Origin: Octopus sinensis
Taxonomy: Eukaryota
Direction of reading: 5' to 3'
Length of the DNA: 64,000 nucleotides
NCBI RefSeq assembly: GCF_006345805.1
Contig: NW_021832228.1
Location: 138,114 to 202,113 of the forward strand
Within the stretch, counting starts at the first letter, position 1; every line of letters starts with the position of its first letter. Shown here one piece after another: positions 4,461 to 59,181 of the stretch. The notes under the pieces were generated by a model that saw only the letters and a list, made by a program, of their open reading frames with translations, did no database searches and had not been told where the DNA came from. The position numbers and the translations under genes are program-made.

Positions 4461-5700
4461 AGTAGTGAGAGTAGTGTTGGATTCCTCAGTTCTGGGATGT
4501 TCAAAATTGGGGAATTGGTTCAAATCGAGTACAATTTAGTGTTTCATTGGTAGACCGCAGGTTGTGGGGGTTATAACTCGACTGGAACGTCAAAACTTTG
4601 TGATTCTTAATTAGTTCGAAAAGGTGGATTTTCAGAGGTGATTTTAGATTGTTAAGAAAAAGAACAATTCGATAACAGTGAGGAAAGTGAGTGCCAATGC
4701 AGTGACTTTTTACTCGGATAACCAGGCAATAACAGTGGCCAGTTCGGTCAAAGTCATCAAAGGGCCTTTGGAAGTAAGTATATTACGTAATCAGTAGAAT
4801 GAGACGGGAACAGTTACAACAGTTACATGTATATACAAGAATTATGTGTTTGTCAAGTCATCCAGTCTGCAACATAATTCTGGGTTATTTGTGGTGGTTA
4901 GACGGAATCTGCGTCGATTGGATGGTAGTGAGTGTTAGTCGGGGGTTGGACAGTGAGGCACGGAGGAATGCAGTCGAGGGTAAACTGGGTGGTTTTGGGT
5001 CTCCATTCCCGATGGCTTCGCCAATGCACTACGCCACCGCATCTACCAAAGTAGGGTCTTAGAGGAATGTGAGGGATCGTCGTCTTATCGGGAATGCCGT
5101 CATGATCATTAAAGGACCACTGAAAGGGAATATTGGTATCATTAAGGACGCGAGTGAAAAGACTGCACAAGTTGAGCTTCACTGTAGTTGTCGTACCATC
5201 AATGTGGATCGTGGCAATTTAATGGCCATTCGTGCTGCTAATGATAACTCCTATGATTTGTCCACACAAGAAGGCAAAACGTTGTCGATTACTCCCACTG
5301 TGAGCAATATTCCTGTCCCTGTGGGGGGAAGGACTCCTTTATATCCGCAGACCCCGTCCTACCCCGAGATTCCGGCATATCCGCAGACACCATCTTACCC
5401 ACAAACACCGATGATAGAGACAGAGGGAGGAGCAACCCCTCATCATTTGATGGAGGAGGGCATGTCTAATTCGTATTGGCTGTGTATGTTAATTTGTAGA
5501 GTTCAGTCGAGTCCTGCTACATTTGGGAGAATTAATTGGCAGTCCCCATTGGATACTCCATGTTTGTGTTTTGTAATATTGTTGTAGCTCATCTACTATT
5601 TGCTCAAGACTTTGACACCTTATTCTACTGTGTCGGTCTCGTGGTGGCTGCTTCCACCAATAAGTCGTTCATTGATTGCGTGATTCGCCGCCATTAAATT
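4461..5700 (+). pseudogene. SUPT5H: 3' half of transcription elongation factor Spt5 (KOW domains and CTR repeats)
   Basis: SESSVGFLSSGMFKIGELVQIEPQVVGVITRLER, VKVIKGPL, ASPMH, LIGNAVMIIKGPLKGNIGIIKDASEKTAQVELHCSCRTINVDR and GGRTPLYPQTPSYP repeats. There is an in-frame TAG near 4612, short introns, and no NGN domain. Confidence 0.92.
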
Positions 5701-5719
5701 GTCTTAGTCGAATTTCACA

Positions 5720-6038
5720 GAGAAGAAACAGTCTGTCGTAGAAATTCGATAAAATTTGTTTATGAATGTTTTTTAAAAGCAAGGGAAGAATTTATTCCAG
5801 TCTCTGGACCTATTCTTAAAAACGTTGCTATAAAAGTAGTTAGGAATTCCGAACTGTATTCCATTCAGAGGTTCAATGGTTTGCTTGAAAAATTTAAGAA
5901 AAGACACAATTTGTCATTTAAGATAATAATTAGTAAAAAATTCGTGTGATATTTCTTGCCTTGGAATAATTTTTAATTTTTTTTTACAAGAAAATATTTT
6001 TTGTTAAACTATTTTTACTGTATTATCTCTACCCGACT
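5720..6038 (+). mobile_element. pogo/Tigger-like remnant (CENP-B HTH) with a probable terminus
   Basis: FLKAREEFIPVSGPILK and NGLLEKFKKRHNLSFK; ends CCCGACTG followed by TA. Confidence 0.65.
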
Positions 6039-6099
6039 GTATATCTAAAAACGAAAATATAATCTAAATCTGTCAAAAAATTAAAAATAAAAAGTTTTC

Positions 6100-6800
6100 G
6101 CAAAGGAATTAAAAATGTATTCATATAGCTAAATTAGGATTATACCAACAATTTTATCTTGCAGTAATTCTTAAGATCAATGGAAATTCTTGATGGTTAC
6201 TTTGACAAAAATATTAATCAAACAAAAATAATTAAAACACGTGATTCGAATTAGTTAATTTTGTACTGTGAGAATCTATCAACGAAGTAAATTGCATACA
6301 CCAGTTATTAAAAAATTTGTTTTTGTTGGGAAATGAGTTCTAAACGAGTTGTTTTAGATAAATTTCTACAATATCTTTCGACGGGATTGTCACAAATAAT
6401 GAAAAACGGATTTTTTAACACTCTTTTGAACTCCATCGTTGTTAAATTAGTCAAGAACAGTCAGTTTATCGACCAAAAAGATAGTGTTGAGTATATTGTG
6501 CGATGTCAAAATAATAATCTATCCCAAATTGTTGAAAATAAGCAAATAATAAGAGCTGTTATTTGCCACGAACAAGAATTGTTGACTAAGAACAAAAAAG
6601 CCATCTGCTGACCTGGTCTCTAAAGCCAGGCTGATAAAATGTCTCTTGAAAGAATTTGGCAAAAAAAGTACTGCCTCATATTCGCCTGATCTAGCTGCTC
6701 TCATCTGTTCCTATTTCTCAAAATAGTTTAAATAATTGTTAATTTGGTTTAAAAAAACTGTTAGAAATTAAATTAGAAGTAATGTTAGAAAATTAGTTTC
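6100..6800 (+). mobile_element. Decayed mariner transposase remnant
   Basis: VLPH/YSPDLAA..HLFLFL motif near 6665-6720; many stops and frameshifts. Confidence 0.6.
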
Positions 6801-6974
6801 AGTCAGAATCCTCCAAGTTTTGCGTATTCTAAATCAATATTGGCGCTTATTTCTATGTATATTCTTTTTTCTGACATCAGTTCTTCTATAAATATATTAG
6901 AGTGAAATAAAAATAGTGTTGTTAAATGATCCAGGGAATGGTTAGAGACCAATAATAATGGATATTAGTTAAAT

Positions 6975-7710
6975 GGAATTCATGTCATTCCATTCATCGT
7001 CAAATGTATCAAATGAGGTTGTATCAATTTCATTTTCCAGCTTACCTGAGCAAATATTGAGAAAAACAGACCTTCCGCTATTTTTAGATCTGATTCCATT
7101 TTTTGCATGCGATTTAAATATTCTTCATTGGATTTGGTCGCCTAAGTGAGTGTGTTAGCGGGGAATGTCATAAATAGGTAACACAGCAACTTTCTAGCCT
7201 ATCGATGTCTTGCTGACACTTATTAAACACCCTATTGAACTCTGCTGCCCTTTCTCGCTCTTAAATTCAAATAAACTCGACAAATTATGCCGCATAGCAA
7301 AGCTTCATATTACCTCATACAAATCTTCTCTCAGTTTCTTAATTGTAGCCTCGTATTCTTCTACCTTGTTATATGCCTACAATAAATATGTCAGTTTAAT
7401 TAATTAAAGTTAGCACCAGGGACCTAGTGGGGATAAGAAAGGAAAGATTGTTAGCTCGGTACCTCAAGAAAATTAATCTCAAGATATTCGAGATTGTTTT
7501 GAACAACATTGTTTGCATATTTTAATCTTAACAATCTGTTTTTAAATTCCAAGATCTTAATTTTTTCTTCCAGCACTTTCTTTTGTCTTTAATTATTAGT
7601 GGTAGTTAATAGGTTACCTGTCACTTTCGCAGAATTTTTCATAGTTTTGCATTACAAAAATTTCAATTTGTTAATAGAATTTAATATATTTCCAATCTAT
7701 GTTATCCTCT
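6975..7710 (-). pseudogene. Tropomyosin-like coiled-coil gene, C-terminal part with short introns
   Basis: VVQNNLEYLEINFLE / AYNKVEEYEATIKKLREDLYE / ERRAAEFNRVFNKCQQDIDRLE aligns by eye with tropomyosin [44 protein letters not shown]. Confidence 0.55.
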
Positions 7711-7809
7711 TAGAAAATAATACTTATAAATTAAATTACTTAATAAATTATAATTAATCCAAAAAATGACCTCACTTAATTCTTTTAATGCATTATTAAG
7801 TTGAACTGA

Positions 7810-8410
7810 AACTTATTTCGGGGTTAGCTGCCTCGATGTGGATTTACCTCGAACTTGCCACCACCAGCAAACACGAGTATCTGTGTCAAGATTTCGACGG
7901 AAGATGCCTGATTATCAGTCCTTCTTCTCTGAATTCTCTTACTTACTCTCTGGTGATTTGTTTTTGGTATTTTAACCTGTTGGCCTTGACAGAGGAGATG
8001 GAAAACGTCCTGATGGGGTCACAATTTTTCTATTTGAAGAGGGGAAACCCCTAGTCTGGAACACAACTTATATCGACACTCTCTGCCCGTCTAACATTGC
8101 CGGGAGCGCAGTGGACAAACTGTATGCCGCGGAAAAAACGATGAGGGCAAAGAAGAGAAAATAGGAAGCGCTGCGCGACCGATTTGCGTTCTATCCGATT
8201 GTGGTCGAGACAACTGGAGGAATAAGTTGGAAATCGCTTCGCTTCCTAAAGAAACTTGGACGCTTAGCTACGACACACGTGTGACCCGGTGGCTTCTCCA
8301 GTTGATCTCTGTTGCGATTGTGAAAGGCAACGAAGCCTCGATAATGTCGGCGGGGTCCACTTCGGATGAATGACTGTGTTAACTTTTAACTATATCTGTT
8401 TTTGTTATAA
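7810..8410 (+). mobile_element. CRE-clade LINE 3' fragment (restriction-like endonuclease)
   Basis: GKRPDGVTIF..GKPLVW..IDT, FYPIVVETTGGI and LISVAIVKGN; homologous to the C-terminus of the 32.3-35.2 kb element. Confidence 0.85.
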
Positions 8411-9299
8411 AAATAAAATTATTAAACTGTGGATAAATTTAAAGAAAACGCCGAAATTCCATTTTTGATAAATCTCTGTTTTGGGGGAATTTTTTTTAAT
8501 AGGTGCTCAAATAGAGATCATATTGTAATTACAAATTTATAATATTGATTTGAACAAAAAATAGAATGTGACTATATTGTCAAGAATAACAATCTTATAT
8601 CCTATCATTATTTCAGAAATAGTTTTCTAATAAAATCGACTGTAAGCTCGATATTCTTTCTAAATATAGTCAACTGATTATTACAGGCACTTTCGCGATG
8701 CCATGGATCATGACAAAGCTTGTGCAGCACAGGAAACAATACGAGTAATTAGCTTATTCCATACGAGTAGTGCATCGAGATCGTCCCCGTCCTTCAGTTC
8801 TCTACCATCCTTCTTTAGGTCTCTATCCAGCGTACCCGGGAGAGTATTTCTTGGTCGCCCACGGAAACGATGGCCCCCAGCTTCGAAATAGTTCTCCATA
8901 GCGGCGTTTGCCGGTGCATCCAAATCCATCCTTAGAATATGTCCAAACAGCCTCCATCTGCATTCAGTAATTTCGAGCGAGATTGGTTTGCTTGATGTTC
9001 TGGCATAAACTGTTCTGCCACTCAGTCTTGAATGCCACTTGGAGTACGTCGAAGGTGATCTCTATGGAAAGAGTCTAGGTTGTCATTGTCTGTAGCGGAA
9101 AGTCCCCAAGTTCCGGCGTTATATAGGAGTATTGGCTTCACTAATGAATTGTATAGTCGTATCCGTGTTTTTGTGCTGAGTCCTTTGCGTTTTAGCCAAT
9201 TTTCCTTTAAGCTGCGTAGTGCACTGTCTGAAAATTCATCATGTGATATTTTTTGAGTTTATTCCTATAATCTGTTTATATATATTTTTTTTAAATATT

Positions 9300-15686: not shown

Positions 15687-17834
15687 CAGTGTTTCTCAAC
15701 CTTTTTTTCCCTGAGGCCCATTTTCAGGGTCATATAAAATCTCAGGCCCATTGCCTTTAATAAAACTTTGATTAACAAAAAAGTATTTTTATTAACATAA
15801 AAAATCTTATTAAAATGTCAATGACTACACTGCTCTTGATGTCTATCTATCAATTTGTCAAGTTGAATTTCCAGATCTTGGTTCAACCTCAAACGTAAGT
15901 CTCCTCTCTTCTCAATCTGCAATTGATTGCGTTTTTTTGTGAGTAAATCGTTTGTTGCAGAAAATCCTATCTCAACCAACCAAGTGGTGGGAAAGCCAAG
16001 TACAAACGGAACAACTTTTTCAAAGAGTAATGGATGAATCGATTCTACTTTCATCCATCCATATAAGCCATCCCTTTCAATATTTTTCATTAATACTTTG
16101 TTCTCCTTCAGTTCAAGAAGTTCTCCAGCAATAATAGGATCAATGTCTTTTTCACTTAATACGTCAAAATGTGCTATATCTATAATCCAACTAGGCGGAT
16201 TCATTTCGATGATATCTTTAAATCTTCTAGTCATATCTTCTTTCAAGCATTTCAAGTGGTCAGTGCAGCTTGCGATTACTTCTGAGCTCGGAGCAGTTTT
16301 GGCAAAATTACAAAAATAAGCAAATTCATTTTTTTGAAGATGCATCTTCCAGAGACATAACTTGTTCAAAAAAGAGCGTACTTTCTCAGCACTATCTATC
16401 AGATTAGCATTTCGCCCTTGCAGTGTCATGTTCAGTTGGTTGACATGTGCGAATAAGTCAGCCAGGTAAAAAATCCTTGCTTTTGTATCGTTGTTATTTA
16501 TCACTGAAAACAAAGTCTCAGCTTTATCTTTCTGCTTCTTGCTACAAGCTTGTGTTTTCATGTCATGAACAAAAATAAGAACCATATCCCACATTTCAGC
16601 AAGACGAACTAGGGAATTTCCTTTGGAAAGCCATCTCACTTCAGTGTGCATGAGGAGTCTCTGGTGGTCCTCATGTTCACATAAATGTTGAAATAGGCGG
16701 TCATGCAAAGCATTGGCTTTGACAAAATTCACTGTTGAAACAGCGACTTTCAATGCATGTTCCATGTCATCATTGAGAGATTTAGCACAAAGATGTTCTC
16801 GATGGATGATGCAATGAATTGCCAATATATGAGGGGCAACTTTTTTTAATTTAGCTACAAAGCCATTCTGTTTGCCGGTCATAGCGCTGGCACCGTCTGT
16901 TGCAATCTGCAACAGATTTGACAGAGGGATCCCATTATCGTACAGATAGTCGTAAACAGCCGCATATATAGTGTCGCTTCGTGTGTCAATCAACTTTTTT
17001 ATAAATAACATTTCTTCATGAATTGCCATTGCATCAATATATCGGACATAAGTAAGTAATAAGGCAGAATTGTTGATTGTTGTCTCATGTCTCACACAAG
17101 CTGTTTCTCGAGGTTTTCTGCCATTTCAATTTGCCTTCTCTTCACTGTGTCATTAGACAATGGGATTTTTTGTAGAATGTTGGCAGCCTGTTCTCCTAGC
17201 AGTTCTTTAGCACAGATCAACATTGCTGGCTTCACCAGACGTTCTGCAATTGTATGTGGCTTCCCCACCTTAGCAACCAGTTCACTCACTGCATAACTGA
17301 CTTTTAGTGTCTTGTTATTATGCTCATTTGCTTTTTTTAAGCAGAATTCTAAAGTTTTTGGAGCATTCTTTTGGCGTAACTCCACTTTCTTCCTGAAATA
17401 GCTGCGCTCCTTTCCAACAGAAGCAGGATGCTTCAACTGTTGATGGGCGAACAATTTTGATTTCTTCATGGAAACATTTGTCATTACTAAGCCACAGTCC
17501 ACACATTCAGGCCTCTTAGAATCAGCACTTGATGGGATGAAGCCTAGTAATAAAAAATCAGTCTGGTATTTGCGTGTAGTCTTCCTTTTTTCCTTGTGTA
17601 CTTTTGACATGAACTATACAATCAGGCCTATAATATTTAAATTTAAATATGACAATATCATTAAATTAAAAACAAATCAAATCAATTTGAAAATAATAAC
17701 GAATAAAGATTTATTAGTATTAGTATTAACATATTTTCTTTGAGGCCCACTCCAGGCCCAATTAAATCTTCAGGCCCATTTCAAAATTTCTCAGGCCCAC
17801 AAGTGGGCCTGGGGCCCAACGTTGAGAAACACTG
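15687..17834 (-). mobile_element. hAT (Buster/Charlie-type) transposon, near full length
   Basis: TIR CAGTGTTTCTCAAC; 8-bp TSD ATTTAGGA (nnnTAnnn) at 15679-15686 and 17835-17842; subterminal AGGCCCA repeats. Confidence 0.97.
15818..17610 (-). pseudogene. hAT transposase split by a frameshifting lesion at about 17095
   Basis: BED-like CVDC..H..KH, IPLSNDTV, TDGASAM, HCIIHREHL, HTEVRWLSKG and FPTTWLVEIGFS; the F.LQLD segment before ETT is absent. Confidence 0.92.
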
Positions 17835-20383: not shown

Positions 20384-21374
20384 TAATATCATCACATTGT
20401 TTTTTGCATCGAGAAGTATTGGTTGTAAAAACATTACCTATGAATTTAAAATCTGTCTTGAATGATATTATCCGAATGATTAACAATATAAAAAGTCGAA
20501 CCAAAAAATCTCACATTTTTACTACTATTTATGATGAAATGGGGTCAAACTTTACAAATTTGTTACTTCATACCGAAATTCGATGGCTATCAAGGGGTAG
20601 AGCATTAACGAGTGTTTTTTAATTAAAGGACGAAATGTATGAGTTTTTTAAATTGGAAGGGCATTCTGAATTTGTTGAAAAATTTCAGAATCCAATTTGG
20701 TCTTTAAAACTTGCGTATTTATCTGACATTTTACAAATATTAAACGAGGTTAATGCAAGTATGCAAGGACGTTCTGAGACTATATTATTGTCGACGGACA
20801 AATTAAATTCTTTGAAAATGAAAATCAGTTTTTGGAGAAAAAGGGTTTTAGATGGCGATTATAATATGTTTCATAGTACATATAGTTAATTTAATAATTT
20901 TGGAAGACAAAATGGATACTTATTTTCCAGACTTAGAAATTAAAAATTCGATTGGGTTATTAGTTTTTTAATATATTTATATACGAAATTTTTTTATTGT
21001 CCCTGAATCAAAAAACTTGTCTATTAAAGAAAATGAAGAACTTATTGCGCTATTTAATCATCGATCCTTATGATTAAAAATGACGGAGTTAGACATTGGA
21101 GAATTCTGGATATATATTCGAAACATATATCCCAGTTTATCAAAACAAGCACTGACCATAATTTTACAGTTTTCAACGACCTATTTATGCGAAGCAGATT
21201 TTTCTAAGCTGCATAATATGAAACATAACAAACGCGAAAGTTTGAGAAACATTGATGCTGAAATGCGGGTGGCTCTGTCAACCATTCGACCTGATATTGA
21301 TGATATATGCAACAACAATAATAATTAAGATTTCATTTTCATAGTAATTTTGTGGAAATTAGAGCACCTATTTA

Positions 21375-23108: not shown

Positions 23109-23149
23109 GTTATAACACATACTAGCAGACCTACTCTAATATTTGTTTT

Positions 23150-24200
23150 GTCTTTATCTCCTTGATTGTAGAACTCTTTAAGATTGCTTAAATTGTCAAA
23201 TAAACAAAAGTTTTGTTCAGAAAGCATTGTGTTATAGTTGACTTCGAAAATCACAGCAGGATGCTTTTTTTACTTTCAACTTTTTCTTCTAAATATCGTC
23301 TCAGTTCTCCAGATTCCATGCTGTAAATAGCAATTAAGTCTAACTTTTTAAAGAATTTTTCTTCACAATTAAATCAATAGATTGAAAATTGCTGCCTTGA
23401 ATCAAAAATGATGATGAGAAGTGAAAACTGACCAGCAGATTGACGATTGTATAATGACTCCATCTGACCCTAGCTCCCTTCAAGCCCCGCTGAAACAACT
23501 TTGCGCAAAAACATTTCGAAAGTAGTAACACGAGTTTGAAAAATGCTGTAAAGTTATGATTAAATACTGGATTCGGGTTGTGCCTAGAGATTCTAATCAA
23601 GGACCATTTGCAGCGCTTTTTCCAGATGAGCAAATTCAGTAGGAGAAGCTTCTGGAAGGTTTCTTAATTTGCTAATTTCACGTTCGGTAGTGGTGACATC
23701 ATCCCCAAAACTTAAAGAGTGAACATCAAGAGCTGCAAGCTTTTTGTGAATTACTTGTATGCTACGCCTTCTTTTAGCTTGAGAGGTAGCTCTTGTCTTT
23801 TCCTGACACGAGTATGACTAGACCTTTTTATTGCCGAATCTTGAGAAGAGCGTGATTTCAAAATCGCAAAGATTTTTCTACGACAAAACTTTGGGAGGAA
23901 AATGCAAATTTCTTACCATTTTTTGACTCGAAAATGCTTAGAGCTTTACGTAGAGTTTTTGCTAGAGGCTCCAGTAGCTTTCCATCTTAACGTTCTTTAA
24001 GCTCTCCTTGAAGCGTGATCAAAGCGTCAAAGTAAATCAAGTAAAAATGGAGAAGCGTGTTACTTTGATGATTCGATTAAAAAAGCCTTAGGAGAACAGA
24101 GTTGTAATGCTGGAAGATAAAGACTATTCGATTAGTAAATCACTCGTGCATGAAATGAACCGGATCTACTCTATTGAAGGAGGAAGAGATCTTATTGAGC
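23150..24200 (-). pseudogene. Intronless decayed hypothetical ORF downstream of surE
   Basis: Long frame with scattered stops (RATSQAKRRRSIQVIHKKLAALDV..FAHLEKALQMVLD..SGELRRYLEEKV); no short introns seen and no homology recognised. Confidence 0.35.
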
Positions 24201-24240
24201 GGTTTCAGAGTGAAGCTCTTCTTAAGTTTGATGCTTATGA

Positions 24241-24994
24241 TCAAAAGAGAAAGAAGTGATCATCGAAAGTTTTTTTCTTTTGATCTATGTGGCAGTAGCC
24301 GGTGAGCTCCCCCACATATAAAGGAACGGCTGGAATGTAGCATTCATCAAGCAAGGCAATATCACTGTTCAAATGTTCATCATAAAGGTGATCGTCCCCG
24401 CCAAAATAGAATTCTGCATGTTCTTCCGCATGCTTCTCTTGCTGTGAGATTCCAAGCCATGAGCAGAAATTTTGACAAGCCATTTTACACCTTTTAAATT
24501 GATCGGGTGGGACACTGGGAAAGTTCACATTTAATATTGACTCTTCAGGTATGGGATGGTCTCAAAGGTAGTGAATGCTTTTTAAAATTTAAGGTTGCAC
24601 ATGAGGGAAGTTTTGTGTTTTATCACACATATAAGAAAAAAATACCTTGAATACCGCTCATTATTGCTTCAGTAATTGTTTCAACAGTTCCATCATATAA
24701 AACGTTGCGTCCTGCGTTAAATCCAAGCTTGATGCTGATATAACGAAATCGGGATATTCTTTAAGCAAACGATGAAGCACAAATTTAACAAAGTCCACAG
24801 GTTTCCCATCAATCATGTACAAGTATTGGTGTAAAAATCAACGGACTTTGTTTGAAGAGGGGAATCAGACGTTATACAAACGCCCGCACCTGATTGTTCA
24901 GACAAGAAAGGAGCAACTGCAAGGTTGCATATTTCAAAAAGCATTTTAGAGTGAATTCCATTGTTATTTGTAAGTAAAAAATAGGTTTTTACAT
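24241..24994 (-). pseudogene. surE: Bacterial-type 5'/3'-nucleotidase SurE, decayed and intronless
   Basis: Ordered motifs LLTNNNGIH (TNDDG), AP..EQSGAG..IT, DGKPVDFVK (GTPADCVK), PDFVIS, NAGRNVLYDGTV, EAIMSGIQGI, HPIPEESILNVNFP and SDIALLDECYIPAVPLYVGELT; several frameshifts. Confidence 0.88.
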
Positions 24995-25269
24995 GATGAC
25001 AGTGTGATATTGTACAGAACCATAGAACCAACTCAGACTGCCAGGCATTCCAATAAAAATCCAGGAATGATTGGCGAAACTGTGCTATTAAATAGAGGAC
25101 AAGACGGTTTTGGCATTAGTAGTCGGAACCTCCTTTGACTCGATCAGGAATCTTCATACATAAGTTACTTAGTTTGTATTATCATTCATTACGTATTTTT
25201 TATTATCATTTCTGATAACCTCAGATAGTTTACGCCGATTTTAATCAACTTCCATATGATAACAACAGT

Positions 25270-25800
25270 ATACGGCGGCGGTTGGCTGAACAAAGTAAAT
25301 ATTTCCGACCTTTTTTATAATTTACAATTGAGACCTTTACGTATGCAATTAAATTATACACATCGTAATAGTATGACTTGATGCTTAAAAACAATTATTC
25401 AATAAACGCATGTGAAACAGATTTTGACAAAATATTTTTAACGAATTTTCAACTAGATTTAATGAAATAGATAACTACGTGTTATATATGTCCAAAATTC
25501 TTCATTTCGTTGCTAAATATTTTGATGGTTTGATCATCGTCCAGGAAAATAACCGCCACTGTGGGTGCAAAGTCAAGCTTTGTATAAGCGATAAGGAATT
25601 TCTGTGCTGGAGAGCTAATATCTACGATCAGAAAACTAGAATTCTTTTTTCATTCATGCGAGCTTTGTCAACAATCATAAGATTTACTTTTCCACAAAAA
25701 AGGAGCTTAATGAAACTGTTCATTTACTGATAAAAAAAAGTTTGATTTTTAAAAGTTGATTTGATTCTTTATTTAATATCTATGAATTTATAGAAATTCA
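25270..25800 (+). mobile_element. Decayed mariner-like remnant
   Basis: Possible terminus TACGGCGGCGGTTGGCTG after TA; weak similarity to the mariner C-terminus. Confidence 0.35.
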
Positions 25801-25859
25801 GAATGGAGCAAATTTTAGATTCATATCTTAGAATATTTAGATTCATACCTATCCGACAT

Positions 25860-26630
25860 TCCTAACCCTAAAATGGAAGACTCGATCATTCTCGCCTACG
25901 CAGAAGACCTACTCATTGGATCAAGTGATCAAGACCTCTTGAAAGCTTCCAAAAGAGCACAAGATCTCTTATTTCAAATTCGTCCACTACCCTATTTACG
26001 TCAGACAAAAGACTCGGAAGACTCACTATTGATCTCTTTCTGGACAACGAAAAGATCCCATTCACGAAGAACCCTAATATCCTTGGAATCACTTTTGACA
26101 CCCACAAGAACAAATGTATGGAAACAATTACTGCCAATTTAGAGAAGGCCATCGGATCCAGTCAGAGAAAGATTGGGCTAATCAAATCAATATTTGGCGG
26201 ACTAAAGAAACCGTTCCCGGCTCTCAGCCTCTCTACAAACAATTCATCAAACCGACATAAGAAAATAATCTCTCACGGTCAAACCGCCTTAAAATTGAGA
26301 CTACACTATGCCGAGTCGCGGGTAGCATAATGAAAATTTTCAATTTGAACAATATTATTCCAAGTCTGCTTGACCACCTAATTAAGAAAGATGGAAAGAG
26401 CTTCTTGGCCATTCAATAAGACCAACTGTCATAAGACCATCATATGTCAATTAGCAAACAGAAGCACATCACCCCAATCCAATTCCTTACAAAAACTGTC
26501 ACCGTCCGTTCCCCACTTGCGTTGGGTCCAGAGTTCAAAATCGGGAAAAGCTGGGAAAAATCTTCAGGATCGTTGGAATCACCTAATTAATTACTCTAAT
26601 TAACGGTTGGTGTTTCTTGGGTTAAATAAA
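25860..26630 (+). mobile_element. I-group LINE RT C-terminal fragment
   Basis: ILAYAEDLLI and NPNILGITFD; similar to 37100-37819. Confidence 0.75.
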
Positions 26631-26659
26631 AAAATGTTTAGAATCACTCAAATAGATAG

Positions 26660-27045
26660 TTAAATTGCGGTTGGCAACTACTTCAGAAGGCTCTGCGGCA
26701 AAGTCGCTGCCAGAAGGGTTGCAATGAGAATCGGGATCGAGGTCTCACCCACGCAAGTCGGTGTTAGTGTACGTGGCGGCTTGTCCATGGGCAAACGTGT
26801 CACTACTGATTTCATCGCTGTGAAGCTGGATGTCACCAACGCTTTCAAAAACGTGCGCCGCGATGCTATTTTGGAAAGATGTTCTCAAAGAGCACCGGAA
26901 ATAATCCATCTTGTTCGGAGAGCAGTCTCGTATATGGGAATGAGATCATCCGTTCGCAGACTGACGTGCCACAGGGTGACTTCTCTCTGCGATAACAATC
27001 GATGAGGCAGCTCGACTTGCTGTCTCTCCTTTCAATCTTCGGTAA
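26660..27045 (+). mobile_element. CRE RT fragment with internal deletions
   Basis: IAVGNYFRRLCGKV, QVGVSVRGG, VKLDVTNAFKNVRRD and DVPQGD. Confidence 0.85.
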
Positions 27046-28880: not shown

Positions 28881-29562
28881 TGTCACCGTCTTGAAGGGAC
28901 CCCCAGGGTTGAACGGAAAATTAAGAATTAAAAAGGCAAAAGTAAATGGCAGGCATAAATTATATGTAAAAAATAGTATTTTAATTATTTTTATAATAAT
29001 TCTAATGTTTAATTTATTATTTTAGAATGGCTTGTCTAAAATTTTATTTTTACATATCAAATTATGACATGCAATGCGACATTGTGACCTTACTCATGAG
29101 GGTTAGGGGTAGGGTAGGGTTAGGGTAGGGTTAGGGGCAGGATTAGGGGCAGGATTAGGGGCAGGATTAGGGCTAGGTTTAGGGTAGGGTTAGGGTCAGG
29201 ATTAGGGTTAGGTTTAGGGTAGGGTTAGGATTAGGGTTAGGCAACATCTATGAAGTGGTGGAAATGGGTATAAGTGGGTTTACGATTGGTTACTTTACTT
29301 TGTTTTTAACTATATATAATTGGCTTTGTAAATTGTAATGACATTCATTTGAAATATTTATTATATTATTTATAATTAGTCTATTTATTTTTCTGAAATT
29401 AAGGCAGTACTAATGTAATCATAATTTTACTAATATAGAAATATTTTGAGGTCATGCAAGTATCTCTGGAATCCTCTTTTGGGTATTTCAATTATTAAGT
29501 GTATGAAATATCTAATTAGGGTAGGGTCCCTTCAAACTTGGGGTCGTTCGATGCCTGTGACA
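28881..29562. mobile_element. Second Ginger-type MITE containing a telomere-like array
   Basis: Termini TGTCAC..GTGACA with an inverted TTGAAGGGACCC motif; 5-bp TSD ATAAA at 28876-28880 and 29563-29567. Confidence 0.85.
29100..29241 (+). repeat. Degenerate interstitial (TTAGGG)n-like array, about 140 bp
   Basis: TTAGGG, TAGGG and TTAGGGGCAGGA units. Confidence 0.95.
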
Positions 29563-32099: not shown

Positions 32100-35000
32100 T
32101 TTTGCACGTTGTTGCTGTTGTTGTTCATTTCATTCTCTCTTTCAATTTTTTGTTCTTTGTTTTCTTTCTCTTTTCACTTCTTTTCAATCTTTTTTCGTTC
32201 TATCTAACCCACTCTCTTTCATCTCATTCTTTCTTTCCTATCTCATCTTACTTTATATCTCTCTATCCCCATGTCATTTTGTTTTTCTTGTAAATCTGTT
32301 AATTCTCGCAAAACTGGTCGCTCCTGCGCCTCTTGCAGTCAGTTTTTCCACCTCTCGTGTGTTAAACTCACTAAACGTGATTCGGCGTCAATCCTTTCTT
32401 GGAAGTGCCCCTCATGCCTCCCACACACGTGGATCCCTAAGCCTTCTCCCCACCCGGCGCCCATCCCGCCTGACAAGTTTCTGTCGCTTCTTTCCGAATC
32501 CCGAAGCCTCCGCGTAATCCCTGCAAGAATTCCCAAATCTGCGCGAATCTGCGTTGCTGATACGCTATCCGACATAATCGATCAGTCCCTTAAAAGCAAT
32601 CTTCCAGAAACTTGGTGCAAACTATTTTCGTTTCCTTCTGTTTGTCTGGGAGCTGCCCCTCGTAAAACGGAGTCAGTAAATAGGACATCGGCCGCTCAGC
32701 AGATTAAAGACCGCTGCAGTTCGTTCATAAAGGCACCCTTCGACTTATCATGGATCACGCCAGATCGCCCCTCGACCGCGAAATCTCGCGGGCCTCTTAA
32801 ACAAGACGAAGGGGTACGCTTAGCCCGGTCAGTTAACAGCAAACTAATGCAGGGAGATGTCTCTGCTGCTGTTCATTTTATTTCATCCACGGCATCCATT
32901 GCCCCGCATACTGATTCCGTTCTGAATTCACTCCAGTTGAAACATCCTCCCGCTCCACCTGATATCCGTGAACCCCCTCACATAGCCAAAACCGAACGAA
33001 TTGTTTCCTCCAGTGACGTGTTAGCCTGCCTTGGATCATTTCCACCGAGCAGTAGCGGGGGAGTAGATGGCCTAAAGCCGATACACCTAAAGGATCTTGT
33101 CGCGCCCATGACAGGGGAATCTGGTGCACGCCTCCTGTCCTCGATTGCATCCTTGTGCAGCAGAATTGTCTCTGGAAATATCCCATCTTTTGCACGCGAT
33201 TTACTGTTCTCGGCCAAACTGACGGCACTTAATAAAAGTGATGGGGGCATCAGACCCATCGCTGTGGGAAACACATTCAGGAGTCTCTCTGCAAAAATTA
33301 TCCTCAGTGTTGTCCTCCCTGATTTGAGCTCTCAGCTGCTGCCACATCAGTTCGGTGTCGGTGTTCGCGGTGCTTGTGAGGCTTCTGCCCATGGGGTGAG
33401 GGAGTTGGTCATCAATGGCAATCCAAAAATCCCATATCTTGTTAAGCTGGACGTGCGCAACGCTTTTAACAGTGTTCGCAGAGACCACATCCTGGAAGTT
33501 GTGCACACCCGCTGCCCGGCACTCTACCCAATTGTCCATCTATCTTATGCGCGTTCCTCGAATCTCCTTTTTGGAAAAAATCTGTTGTCCTCAGCGTCTG
33601 GGGTTCAGCAAGGGGACCCATTGGGACCTCTCCTATTTGCCCTCGCAGTGGACCTTATTGCTCAAAGGCTTTTGTGCCCGTTAAATTTCTGGTATCTCGA
33701 CGATGTCACCTTAGGTGGCTCGCTTGAAAATATTCATAACGACGTTGCTGATATTATTTCGGGTTTTAGCCAAATTGGCTTATCCCTTAATGGCTCCAAG
33801 TCGGAATTTACCCTGCTTTCCCTCGATCATTCTTTATTTTATCCTGCCTTCACGTCCCTGTCCGAGAAAGTTGTCGGTCTCTCTGCGACAGACCCGGACG
33901 ATCTGGTCATCCTTGGTTCACCAATCTCTGGTCGAGGTATTTCCGCCGCCATTGAGCGTAAAAAACGCCAGCTGGCTCAAACACTGGAGCGTATCTCCCA
34001 ACTGGGCGCACATGTCGGGCTATTCCTTATAAAGAATTACCTATTCATCCCCCGCCTAACCTACCTATTCCCTCGTCTCCATGCTTTCGGGAACCAGACC
34101 TCTTGTCCGACCTGGACTCCGTAATCTGGAAGTCAGTTGGGAAGCTTCTTAATGTTGACTTTGGCGGGGACCTACTTACCCGCGCAATGTTACCCCTCCG
34201 TTTCGGAGGCATCGGTATCCGCTCGTGCAAAGACATTTCTATCCCATGCTACCTATCTTCGCTCTCGGTATCAAGAAATTTTGTCAGTTCTGTTCTTTTT
34301 CGCTCCCCTGAACGTTTTGAACTGACTGAATTTTCTTCTGCCCTCGCTGCCTGGACCGCCTCAGGTCTTTCCTTCCCCGTGGAGGATCACTTGCAGAGGA
34401 GTTGGGACTCCATCCGCTGCAAAGAAGTGGTAAAGTCCCTTAAAGGAAGCGCCGATCAAGTTAAACTCGCATCGTTGAATGCAGCCTGTCACCCGCATTC
34501 TGGAGACTGGTTGAAAGCCATCCCTCTGTCCACCGCTGGTCTCCTCTTGGATGATGAATCGACTCGAATCGGGACCTGTCTTCGTCTGGGAATTCCCCTT
34601 TGCCACCCTCACCGGTGCAAGTGCGGCCACATGATTGGCCCCGATGGTCTCCACCCCCTTTCGTGCCGCTTAAGCACCGGGCGTATCCCGAGACACGCTG
34701 GCCTGAACCACGTCGTCAAACAGGCCCTCAATGCCGCAGGCTTCCTTTCTGTTCTGGAGCCTGCCGGCCTCGACCGTGGCGACGGCAAGCGTCCAGACGG
34801 AATGACAGTCTTTCCATTCTCGGAGGGGAAATGTCTCGTTTGGGACGTTACCTGCGCGGACACCTTTGCCCCCGGGACCGTTGCTCAGTCTGCGTCCTCC
34901 CCCGGCTTCGCTTCCCGTCGGGCTGAGGAGACGAAGCGGAAGAAATACGCCTCTCTCTCACCAAATTACCACTTTGTCCCGATTGCTGTGGAGACAAGTG

Positions 35001-35240
35001 GGGTGATAGGGACGGGCGGAGTATCGTTTTGTCCGAAATTAGGAAGCGCATCAACAAGGGCACGAAGGACCACCGCGAAATCAGCTGGCTGTACCAGAGG
35101 ATATCGATCGCAATCTTGCGAGGTAACCCGCTTGCAATCCGAGGTGCAGCCACTGCTGACTCTTAATTAGCTATTTTGGTTAAGTTTTTTTTCGATTGAT
35201 TATTTCCATTAAAATTTACAACTATTATTAAAAAATTAAT
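32100..35240 (+). mobile_element. Near full-length CRE-clade non-LTR retrotransposon (PHD finger, RT, zinc knuckle, RLE)
   Basis: Pyrimidine-rich 5' UTR, single ORF and AT-rich 3' end; exact ends and TSD not identified. Confidence 0.93.
32271..35166 (+). CDS. CRE polyprotein with two 1-bp frameshifts (about 34071 and 35028)
   Basis: PHD CFSC..CASC..FHLSC..WKCPSC; RT GGIRPIAVG, KLDVRNAFNS, GVQQGDPLGPLLF and WYLDD; CKC..H..SC; RLE RH..LN, KRPDG..VWDVT, KRKKY and FVPIAVETSG. The corrected frame ends QRISIAILRGN..ADS*. Confidence 0.9.
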
Positions 35241-55427: not shown

Positions 55428-56486
55428 ATGAGTGATCCAATTCTTGACTTCAAGAATGGTAGGTTTTATTGTCCATGGCTTGGTTTCTCTGATGTCAGCC
55501 TTTTTCAACGTTTAAATACTATTTGACTTACTGTGACTCCGTGAATGAAACCAAAATAAATGTTTTTGGTCAATTCTAGGAATTGGAAAATACTGTTTTC
55601 TGTGTATCACCAGAAAAGAGACCTGTTCGCTCTAAAAAAGAGACCGTGGATATCTCACAGCTATCTTCTAGTCCAAATGGACAATCTAAATATCCTTACC
55701 GATCCCATTGTATCGGACATTGTGCTGTGCAAGTACATTTTTCTACCGAGGGTGAATCAAAATGCCATATCCATCCCCGAATTGCCCGAGATTGATTATG
55801 TGCTAATCTCTCACAGCCACCACGACCACTTAGACTACCCTGCTTTTACACAACTACACCAAAGATTTCCAAAAATTAAATTTCTAGTCCCTCTCAATGT
55901 CAAAGCATTAATCCTGTCCGTTGCGCGGCTCAAGTTGAGGAGTTTGGATGGTGGGACCAAGTCCAGTTAAGTAATCAAGTCACTGTGGCACTCGTACCTG
56001 CTCAACACGGAAGTAGAAGATCTCTTTTTGACGAAAACAAAGTTTGAGGTCGATATGATAGTAAGACACTCTGAGGAGGGTGGTGTTTGGTGGGAACAAG
56101 TAATGTTGGAACATTTTACTAATCTGGAGACACTGGATACTATCAGCCAATCTTTAAAACCATTGGCATGAAATATGGGCCCTTCGACGTTGCTGCACTC
56201 CCAATTGGTGCGTACGCTCCAAAATTCTTATTCAAATACCAACATGCTGACCCCAGGGAGTGCATTCTTATTCAACAAGATGTTCAAGCTAAACACTGCA
56301 TTGGAGTTCATTGGGGGACTTTTCGGCTGGGATATGAGGTTGTGTGACAATTAATTGTAGGGAATCTTTGAGTCTCGCCACGTTCTTAATAAAGAGAAGG
56401 AATCATTCGAGCTGGGAGAAGCCACGTTTAAGTGCATTCGGGCTGGACAAACTATAAACAGAAATGGATCAATTATTGTTTTTTAA
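55428..56486 (+). pseudogene. NAPEPLD: N-acyl-phosphatidylethanolamine phospholipase D (metallo-beta-lactamase fold)
   Basis: ILTDP, VLISHSHHDHLD, PAQH, SGDTGY, GPFDVAALPIGAYAP, QHADP and GVHWGTF. There are frameshifts, a TGA at the conserved LWG Trp, and one donor reading AT. Confidence 0.92.
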
Positions 56487-56804
56487 TTCATACGATAATC
56501 ATCCTGATTTCCTTTTGAACAAATCGTTTTTGATAATTAAGATAATTTTTAACTCTCCAATTATTTTTTATAAACAGTGTTTAAATTAGTAACCAAAAAC
56601 ATTATTTTTGCTGATATTAAGCCTCTGTATAAACATTTAATTAAAGTTCTTTTCTCTGTTCACCAGCTCCAGTTGGTACTGGTTTTTCTCTTTCTAAATT
56701 ACCTTGTTTAATGGAAATAAATCATCAGTCTTTTGACGTCATTCTCCAGTTGTTTTCCAGTTTTGTGTCATTTAGGGACCATTATACTTATTTAGGAAGT
56801 TAGA

Positions 56805-57099
56805 ACTGGAATTGCCGCGGCTGCTGGCACCAGACTTGCTCTCTAATTGCATTCATTAAAGTTTTACAGTTATTTCATTACGATCTCCTGGCAAATGCCG
56901 GGATCCGTTATTTATGATCACTATCTCTTTATGCCAAAAGTGGATAATTTACGCACCTGCTGCAATCCATAGATCTGGCACCCATTTCTCATGCTCCCTC
57001 TCCGGAATCGAACCCTGATTCCCCGTTACCCGTTGTAACCACGGTAAGCCAGTACCTCACCGTCGAAAATTGATGGGGCGGACATCTAATTGATACGTC
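56805..57099 (-). rRNA. 18S rRNA: 18S rRNA fragment (pseudogene insertion, 295 bp)
   Basis: The minus strand has AACGGGTAACGGGGAATCAGGGTTCGATTCCGGAGAGGGAGC and GCAAGTCTGGTGCCAGCAGCCGCGG; flanked by the 15-bp direct repeat ATTTAGGAAGTTAGA. Confidence 0.96.
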
Positions 57100-57298
57100 A
57101 TTTAGGAAGTTAGATCGTAATAGTTCCTTAGTTTGAGATAGTAAAAAGGTTTAGAGGAGGTTGAACAAGTTGATATAGTAGACGATCAAGGGAGGCAGTT
57201 GTCCTGAAAAAATCAGGTCGATTGGTTGCACACAAGTAGAGATCTCGCGTTTATTTTTGGTGAAAATAAAAACGCATTTTTAGATTTAAATAAGAACG

Positions 57299-59181
57299 CT
57301 ATGTTTTTAGAAGTGATTCATTATGCTTCTTGCCACTAAGGTAAATTTTGTTGACGTATTTGATCCAATTGAGTAAGATACTTGCGGTTTGATATATTAC
57401 AATAGGAGACTCAAATAGATCCGAAGTTGAAGGGAAAAAGGAATCGACGTGCTCCTTCACCGTCGTATAACTACATGTTAAGAACCCCTTACCTGGTAGA
57501 CAACTTGACACTATTGGGAATCACAACCTTACTGTTGTGGTCAATTATAAAGATCCGTGTAGAGGGGAGTCCCAAAGCACGGTATGTCTCTTCGTCCTAC
57601 ACAATTCACAACACAACTCCCACAGTATCACGGTTGCCGAATCCCCCTGCAATGGGATTGGAGACCTCATCGGGAAATAAGTCCACAATCTCATTTAAAC
57701 AACTAATTTTAAACTCTTGCGAGCACTTGTGAATAATCTCCCTAATTGTAGTCAATAGGACAGCCCACTAATAATCCGAAAGGGGAGAGCATGATTGGGC
57801 CAGTCGGGAGAGCAACCCCGTCCTCCCGCACACTCGAGATGAACTGAGTGGTCAAAGCCGACTGGGCAATGGAGCGGGAGGACAAATAAACTATTCTGTA
57901 TTCGTTGTCGCTGATGGCCCGAAATAACTGAATCACGTTTTTGTGGCACCAATTCATTCCCAAATAGGGCAGGACTTGTCCGAACACATCAGTCCTGAAA
58001 TACAGCTTGCCCACTACCTGGTGATCGTCCCATCAATGTCCGAGACCACCAATTTATCCTTATACGACCAACGGAATATTCGACATCTCACCGTGGACGT
58101 ATGCCGTGGTCACCGAAAACGTGGCCTGATTGCAGCCGGGATTCAAATTCATTTGTCTCTACCAAAATATAACTTTGCCATCACAATGATCTCGGAACTC
58201 AAAAGACAAGGCCGATCACAGAGGTTTCCCGCCTTCAGGGAATAAGATTTGCGCGGGGAATTCATTTCCGAGTCACTGTTGGTGAAATCACTCGTGCTGG
58301 AGTCGGCAAACCTCTGGAATTGTTAGAACAGACAAACCACGGGGGAGTGGAGAGTGTTTTATTGATGTGGGAATAACTGTACCTGTTCTCATTTCTCCCA
58401 AAATGATATTCTTTACTAGACTCCGCTTAGACTTGGGGGGTAGCGGTTGAGTGACTTCATCACCTCCTGTGGTGTGTGGGCAGACCAACCTGCGGGAGAC
58501 GCGCCCAAACACGGAAAGGGATACCAAAAACTGGATTGAAGTTTTCCTGTTGTGAGTCCTCCAAATCCCCAGGCAAAGCTCGTTGACAATCTGCGAGGGA
58601 GTCGTCGGTGGAAGGTGACATTGCAGTCCGGAACCTCGACTCACTCCCCTAAATGCCGACTCCACTGCCAACTCGGAGTGTCCCAAGTACTGCACACACT
58701 TGTCCTCGTCACCCACCACCTCTGACAGGAAGAGGGGTTATCCATTTGGGGGTTGGGGAAATTGGTCACATGCAAATTCGACTGGGAAGAACTGTGTTGG
58801 CGGACTATTCCGTCGTCCTTCGAAACCAGCAAGTCTAAAATGGGGGAGTGAGGTCACCGAGTGTTCCCGTGGAAAGGCTTCTGCTGAGGGTGGGTTCTTC
58901 CTCCTTCTCCCAGTAAACTTGGCCGAACTGATTCAGTCGGAGGTCCAATTTGACTGGGGCGCCGTTGATTTGGACGTCAATCTGGAATGTGGGTAAAAGG
59001 GAGAGAACGTGCTGGTCTTGAGAACTTGCATCATTCCGAATATTATCCTGAGAGGGGTGGATGCAAAGGAGGCGTCATGTTGTTCGATCACAATTATGTC
59101 GATTGCCCCACTTGTTGGCGTGGAGTTGAATCTGTTTTATAATCCACGTACTTTTGAGAATATATTGTTCACATAATGCAT
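57299..59181 (-). pseudogene. LPIN: Lipin (phosphatidate phosphatase) with NLIP and LNS2 domains, disrupted
   Basis: SGAIDIIVIEQ, IDVQING, LVVSDIDGTIT, DVFGQVLP, YLSSRSIAQ, LPTGPIMLSP and GFGNRDT; in-frame TAA near 59138, frameshifts, and 23-27 nt introns. Confidence 0.92.

Follow-up and report, generated by a model that had tools for sequence, protein, structure and literature searches.

Within the 64,000-nucleotide stretch of DNA analyzed here (the window, on scaffold C8699) lies a 2-kb insert that is quite probably a decayed fragment of a Simkania chromosome, lodged among host repeats on what is most likely a dicyemid scaffold and likely left there by a past Simkania infection of the germ line. 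The insert is a multi-gene chromosomal fragment and not a lone surE, with the following parts:

23123..25106, minus strand: whole Simkania-derived insert, in three collinear blocks (blastn against L086)
24985..25106, minus strand: 3' end (the final 39 codons) of a sodium:solute symporter gene (putP-like), which precedes surE in Simkania (tblastn 59% over 39 aa, E 4e-8)
24241..24994, minus strand: surE pseudogene (5'/3'-nucleotidase), with NN in place of DD, three premature stops and six deletions that each shift the frame
24031..24256, plus strand: small hypothetical gene in convergent orientation to surE, 3' half (71 aa at 75% to L086 ORF 4459-4893)
23123..24027, minus strand: broken middle of a 1001-aa gene of a Simkaniaceae family, recurring on other scaffolds

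The reference locus, L086, is the surE locus on a Simkania metagenome contig; it carries the gene for the intact SurE relative P0002, and 14.5 kb of it served as the query. By blastn, L086 3582-4685 corresponds to window 25106-24031 (85%), L086 6981-7417 to 24027-23596 (87%) and L086 7675-8148 to 23583-23123 (84%), the blocks being separated in L086 by about 2.3 kb and 0.24 kb that have no counterpart in the window. The putP-like gene of L086 falls in Pfam SSF, and the order putP-surE is the same in two Simkania genomes; the small convergent gene also adjoins surE in G163 and G185, while the 1001-aa gene, a member of a paralog family present in 8 of 39 Simkaniaceae genomes, stands beside surE in L086 alone among the loci compared. 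In L086 the latter gene (5654-8656) is inserted next to tRNA genes, and a Pfam search with it was negative; a YopT-like protease fold at the C-terminus of its product (Atlas score 0.87, below the bar) is a weak lead, and the family possibly comprises secreted effectors. Searched against the 39 Simkaniaceae genomes, window positions 25000-25860 gave matches of at most 38 bp, which we take as chance. The initial annotation had described remnants of eukaryotic transposable elements on both sides of surE; repeats do lie beyond 23123-25106, but the immediate neighbors are decayed Simkania genes.

The surE frame runs on the minus strand from an ATG at 24994 to a TGA finishing at 24241, exactly the interval first proposed for it. 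It begins ATG TAA, and SurE is readable across four frame pieces, all four of which match SurE models of NCBIfam in the order expected from the gene (E 0.031, 1.2e-5, 5.5e-5 and 9e-8), each with a score below the whole-protein cut-off, bearing out the earlier claim that the SurE motifs occur in order. The last piece (106 aa) retrieved eight relatives among 18 candidates, including P0002 (80%) and the SurE of Simkania negevensis (65%); the window scores 251 bits against P0002, compared with 24.6 for the best of 20 base-shuffled windows, and 182 of 243 aligned residues are identical. Homology to the SurE family (PF01975, TIGR00087), to which the S. negevensis protein belongs and among whose members solved structures exist, extends over the full length, with the motifs in order and the same neighboring genes; the window copy differs in lacking the intact frame of about 250-260 aa and in having both N-terminal aspartates replaced by asparagines, so that TNDDG of P0002 reads TNNNG. 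The aspartates of this NDDG motif have a catalytic role in SurE. Alignment to L086 yields six deletions (1, 20, 1, 4, 1 and 2 nt), every one of them frameshifting, premature stops at codons 2, 145 and 154, and no intron, which upholds the frameshifts, the altered catalytic motif and the lack of introns that had been noticed at the outset. The same lesions are reproduced in short-read contigs, one of 1552 bp (depth 69.5) that is identical to the window across 24400-24994 and a second, covering 24029-24398, with zero differences, and they are therefore not long-read errors; the short reads come from three runs on a single sample within one study and are possibly those from which the assembly was made. 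Read from its sequence, the window surE is a dead gene that would encode nothing now and yield no working enzyme.

The gene order putP, surE, hypothetical gene, 1001-aa gene is kept in the insert as in L086, and L086 in turn shares its gene order around surE, at 76% DNA identity, with G163 and G185, two genomes encoding SurE proteins that are identical to proteins carrying the names Simkania sp. and S. negevensis. A maximum-likelihood SurE tree (78 rows, LG+C20) was built with the best 30 of 226 matches in 300 genomes plus database hits as its chlamydial rows, other Chlamydiae and other bacteria being included and two candidate rows dropped for lack of a full ORF. In this tree the window is sister to P0002 (support 100/96; branch ends 0 for P0002 and 0.35 for the window), and the pair sits inside a 13-row clade with named Simkania (100/99), not grouping with another clade. 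At the DNA level the window surE shares 86% of positions with L086, 67-68% with these two Simkania genomes and 56-64% with six further chlamydial loci. The chlamydial character first ascribed to surE is thus confirmed, and the tree, the DNA identity of 84-87% and the gene order narrow it to Simkania. Substitutions relative to L086 that are common to both lineages of copies in the host genome (see below) amount to 32 of 861 (3.7%), which sets a ceiling on how far the donor can have been from L086 within the 1001-aa gene copies compared; to judge from these comparisons, the donor is a very close relative of the L086 organism.

The changes accumulated by the insert are spread over codons differently from those between live orthologs. 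Differences between the window surE and L086 at codon positions 1, 2 and 3 number 39, 31 and 30, as against 44, 14 and 125 for a live ortholog pair, and dN/dS is 0.73 as against 0.045-0.064 for live orthologs; this pairwise value is preferred to a polarized count (6 synonymous and 65 non-synonymous changes on the window branch), in which saturation of the outgroups makes the number of synonymous sites too low. G>A and C>T together make up 35 of the 71 polarized changes, and GC content has moved from 0.425 to 0.37 in the insert, the window standing at 0.363. Non-synonymous divergence (pN) is 0.09-0.13 in all four insert genes, with about 12-13% of bases changed without regard to codon position, so that the decay looks neutral. 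The divergence of the inserts is about three times that of the living relative from the donor, which suggests a fast host mutation rate together with a fairly recent event.

The identity of that host rests on features at the far end of the window and on the composition of the assembly, which comprises two eukaryotes, one represented by chromosome-scale contigs and the other by many small scaffolds. Two window features are relevant:

56800..57100, minus strand: fragment of a short, dicyemid-type 18S rRNA (Rfam RF01960)
57471..58017, minus strand: part of a lipin gene with four GT-AG introns of 22, 27, 27 and 23 nt (intron inspection)

A long 18S of about 2.6 kb (locus 63% GC) is found mostly on large contigs and a short one of 1667 nt on small scaffolds; the window fragment is 97% identical to the 1667-nt 18S L235 and 72-75% identical over the same length to the chromosomal type. 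The dicyemid primers F3 and R2 (from the supplement of PMC6778094) have 1-2 and 0 mismatches, respectively, in two full-length short 18S copies, compared with 7-9 mismatches in 10 of 10 long-type copies. All four introns examined, from the one lipin gene, are shorter than 30 nt, and their removal from the L213 copy leaves 200 open codons. Dicyemid introns are given a median of 27 bp (PMC6543705), and the text of PMC13644364 describes such tiny introns among animals as reported only for dicyemids and myxobolids (myxozoans); the D. japonicum genome is put at 36.7% GC and 49% repeats (PMC6736024). A protein search with the Spt5 exon for the identity of the carrier found no match among 74 candidates. 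On the strength of two primers, 18S length and intron size, C8699 most likely belongs to the genome of a co-sequenced dicyemid parasite. The proposal that the insert is a fossil of an intracellular symbiont of this host consequently has to be amended, the carrier being a dicyemid-type cobiont and not the main animal.

Some further observations on the small scaffolds may be recorded here. Partial or decayed copies of the short 18S are scattered outside intact rDNA arrays (window 56800-57100, L236, L237, L245, L249), and host genes in the window look partly broken or duplicated at 149-615, 4500-5600, 55560-56500 and 57400-58500; these are the CBS domains of an IMPDH-like gene, Spt5, a metallo-beta-lactamase-fold gene and lipin, of which lipin has near-identical copies on two other scaffolds. 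Genes on small scaffolds risk being mis-credited to the main animal.

The window insert is not the only one. Five G163 regions that were not chosen for surE, 86.3 kb in total, were searched against the assembly, and two of the five (tuf-rpoB-rpoC and the dnaK region) yielded inserts:

C9457:11088-11460, C10288:1199-1489, C12463:33794-33973 and C9532:19191-19370 (L274-L277): rpoC fragments, two pieces in two copies each, with frameshifts and stops
C9076, about 207650-209080 (L300:746-2176): third insert, found with the dnaK-region query; about 1.4 kb, broken, with retroelement-like sequence on either side

Among 250 Chlamydiales genomes the best matches of the rpoC pieces are two Simkania (75% and 74%), the next reaching 72%, and their named protein matches are mostly chlamydial; at codon positions 1 and 2, 33 of about 248 sites differ, compared with 3 between live genomes. 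The C9076 insert holds the 3' part of a 758-aa hypothetical gene and, adjacent to it in Simkania order, a gene that we take to be leucine dehydrogenase-like; two Simkania rank at the top of the 8 of 250 genomes that match it, and its excess of changes at positions 1 and 2, about 18%, is somewhat above the 12-13% of the other inserts. No insert came from the rRNA, ribosomal-protein and fusA test regions, whose short matches lay within universal genes only and were taken as host homologs. Every Simkania-specific match is on a small scaffold, those on chromosome-scale contigs being short and within tRNA-Val, rRNA, gapA, dnaK or fusA. The screen for further chlamydial fragments suggested by the initial annotation was in this way rewarded.

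How Simkania DNA may have reached the dicyemid genome can be sketched as follows. Since dicyemid germ cells form within the axial cell and the multiplication of Chlamydiae is strictly intracellular, the simplest route would be an infection of the axial cell. Simkania DNA would have been released inside a germ-line cell and captured in the repair of a double-strand break, the mechanism also assumed for the passage of Wolbachia and organelle DNA into the nucleus; lacking usable eukaryotic signals, the insert could then have drifted to fixation, and ordinary segmental duplication would have spread it once fixed. Infection of the dicyemid itself, and with it the symbiont route envisaged from the beginning, is something that we infer, and this leaves room for an alternative that we regard as unlikely though worth weighing, namely that Simkania infected the renal tissue of the animal host or a co-resident protist and that the dicyemid, never infected, took up the DNA from fluid or another carrier. 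Simkaniaceae are described as infecting protists and many marine animals (10.64898/2026.01.29.702485; PMC11521371), and renal organs are shared with other eukaryotes, chromidinids as well as bacterial sequences having been described in renal DNA (PMC12953835). Against such an indirect passage stand the at least three separate donor regions that reached the germ line, which favor close or prolonged contact, and the confinement of Simkania-specific matches to small scaffolds; indirect routes are, moreover, argued to be unlikely for the Wolbachia analog (PMC12693587).

Much less likely is that a living, degenerating Simkania symbiont or some other contaminant was mis-joined into a eukaryotic scaffold. 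The flanking features that bear on this point are:

21074..21325, plus strand: hAT transposase remnant, left flank (Pfam Dimer_Tnp_hAT, E 6e-5, above cut-off)
25841..26644, plus strand: host repeat, reverse-transcriptase-like by eye, tied to surE by one short-read contig (Pfam negative)
26718..27044, plus strand: retroelement-like host fragment, common to an old duplicate of the locus on C12222

The 1552-bp contig, which belongs to the run X1, spans 24400-25954, differing from the window by two substitutions and one 3-nt gap, all outside surE, and continues 113 bp into the host repeat. On C12222 a bacterial piece (92.9%) is joined directly to a fragment of the 26718-27044 type (91.4% ungapped), and this same joint, 23924-26718, also occurs within an X1 short-read contig; most simply, the C12222 copy would be an old duplicate of the window locus that has lost its middle. 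The insert is thus joined physically to host DNA, by its right junction and by the second junction in the C12222 duplicate, which supports the earlier view that it is integrated and no fresh contamination. The left junction at 23123 is unbridged among the short-read pieces listed, the nearest of which begins at 23134, and the junction sequences inspected have no obvious target-site duplication. A live donor at about 85% identity would admittedly escape read matching at 90-95% likeness and might on that account be present in the sample; a contaminant is, however, hard to reconcile with short-read contigs that connect bacterial DNA to eukaryotic repeats at two loci, with the essential rpoC being broken in like manner, and with the outcome of the genome-wide searches. 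No chlamydial 16S or 23S was found in the assembly, 36 of 36 scored matches being 68-77% identical and at most 180 bp long; a bacterial 16S model, with 35 of its 210 candidates scored, reached 538 bits at best, compared with 1554 for a genuine Simkania 16S, and the eight loci classified out of 15 are all eukaryotic SSU. PF01975 searched against the assembly gave no match at E<=0.001, with one candidate scored, a family search that misses decayed copies and bears on an intact gene alone. Neither the 16S nor the intact domesticated surE copy that the initial annotation had thought worth seeking was therefore found in the assembly, and groEL, nadC and the other L086 genes are likewise unmatched there.

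Other elements of the window lie outside these joints. Long open frames at 15818-17613 and 32208-35170 look by eye like those of a hAT-like transposase and a non-LTR element, respectively, the latter with a PHD-like start and a C-terminal endonuclease-like motif; both elements are possibly recent. A short array of degenerate TTAGGG-like repeats sits inside the scaffold at about 29100-29240.

That the insert belongs to the genome of the main, chromosome-scale animal is more improbable still, even though the window is filed in that animal's assembly. This animal has the different 18S of about 2.6 kb, and a second lipin exon in the assembly, of animal type, has long flanking introns. The repeat at 25841-26644 to which surE is bridged lies on small scaffolds in 40 of 40 scored matches (of 319 candidates) and on none of C1-C30. 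Around the other inserts, six of six flanking stretches contain repeats that also occur in the small-scaffold set (261 kb), and none of the six has any in common with 89 kb of loci that are mostly chromosomal.

Of the 18 matches that the 14.5-kb L086 query found in the assembly, 17, from L086 3582-8184, are distributed over nine small scaffolds, the window's own and eight others; the eighteenth, 55 bp on C1, falls within a tRNA-Val and is disregarded. The stretch of donor-type chromosome represented in the genome is at least 4.6 kb long and comprises the putP end, surE and two hypothetical genes. The copies fall into two lineages, with about 82% identity between the two and about 87% between either of them and L086. 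The 0.24-kb gap is common to five long copies and small deletions recur at the same places; L086 6739-6980 is kept by one lineage and missing from the window, and hence some or all of the 2.3-kb gap dates from after the insertion, while some of the shared gaps were possibly present in the donor already. Kilobases of host flank travel with the copies, as in segmental duplicates, and the whole pattern would fit one insertion, an early duplication and later segmental copying. The presence of the 1001-aa gene piece on nine scaffolds might suggest that part of the insert was domesticated, this piece for example as a host element, a reading to which we assign a negligible probability given that pN and pS are nearly equal in both copy lineages (0.129/0.126 and 0.128/0.141), that every copy longer than 70 bp carries deletions and that the host flanks are those of segmental duplicates.

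The preferred reading, a past germ-line infection of a dicyemid by Simkania, admits of a bolder version in which a heritable Simkania endosymbiont of dicyemids shed its chromosome into the germ line and left tens of kilobases of fragments, and to this we would give slightly less than an even chance. About 2 kb was recovered from 86 kb of test queries, which scales to about 50 kb for a 2.4-Mb donor, an estimate drawn from two hits with queries only about 70% identical to the inserts. Were it true, the inserts would be the chlamydial equivalent of Wolbachia fossils in an animal, and a donor less than 4% from living Simkania would provide a direct gauge of the neutral mutation rate in one of the fastest-evolving animal phyla. 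The inserts document the entry of chlamydial DNA, from three or more regions of the donor chromosome, into the genome of an animal; they indicate that Simkania and Dicyemida have been associated, and they suggest that gene-based horizontal-transfer screens would miss dead chlamydial traces of this sort. Among the top matches of large lists from the open-access literature, we found no report of a Simkania-Dicyemida association or of a chlamydial insert of this kind.

To our knowledge, the fossil symbiont inserts of animals come mainly from Wolbachia, whose nuclear transfers have reportedly been studied in filarial nematodes and arthropods, while ancient transfers of chlamydial genes to Plantae are also said to have occurred. 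Chlamydial-type tRNA genes in fern and lycophyte mitogenomes (PMC10027690) likewise have Chlamydiae as the DNA donor to a eukaryote; the plant cases, however, concern ancient and retained genes or tRNAs, whereas here the pieces are dead, recent-looking, multi-gene, in an animal and assignable to one genus. Symbionts of the same family, Simkaniaceae, are described from other marine eukaryotes, namely Xenoturbella bocki (PMC11521371) and diplonemids (10.64898/2026.01.29.702485). Transfer to the host was sought in both of these studies, one of which states that none was found and the other that one of 56 candidates was chlamydial and ascribed to a bacterial contig; the Xenoturbella count covers predicted genes and may have missed dead fragments. 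The closest likeness is to the nuclear Wolbachia transfers of filarial nematodes and arthropods, which PMC12693587 portrays as pieces of an intracellular bacterium's chromosome in an animal nucleus, pseudogenized, found also without current infection and taken as fossils of past ones. The inserts described here differ from them in both the bacterial and the animal phylum involved, in that the donor is a member of the Chlamydiota, Simkania, and not a maternally inherited member of the Rickettsiales, and in that the probable carrier is a marine dicyemid.
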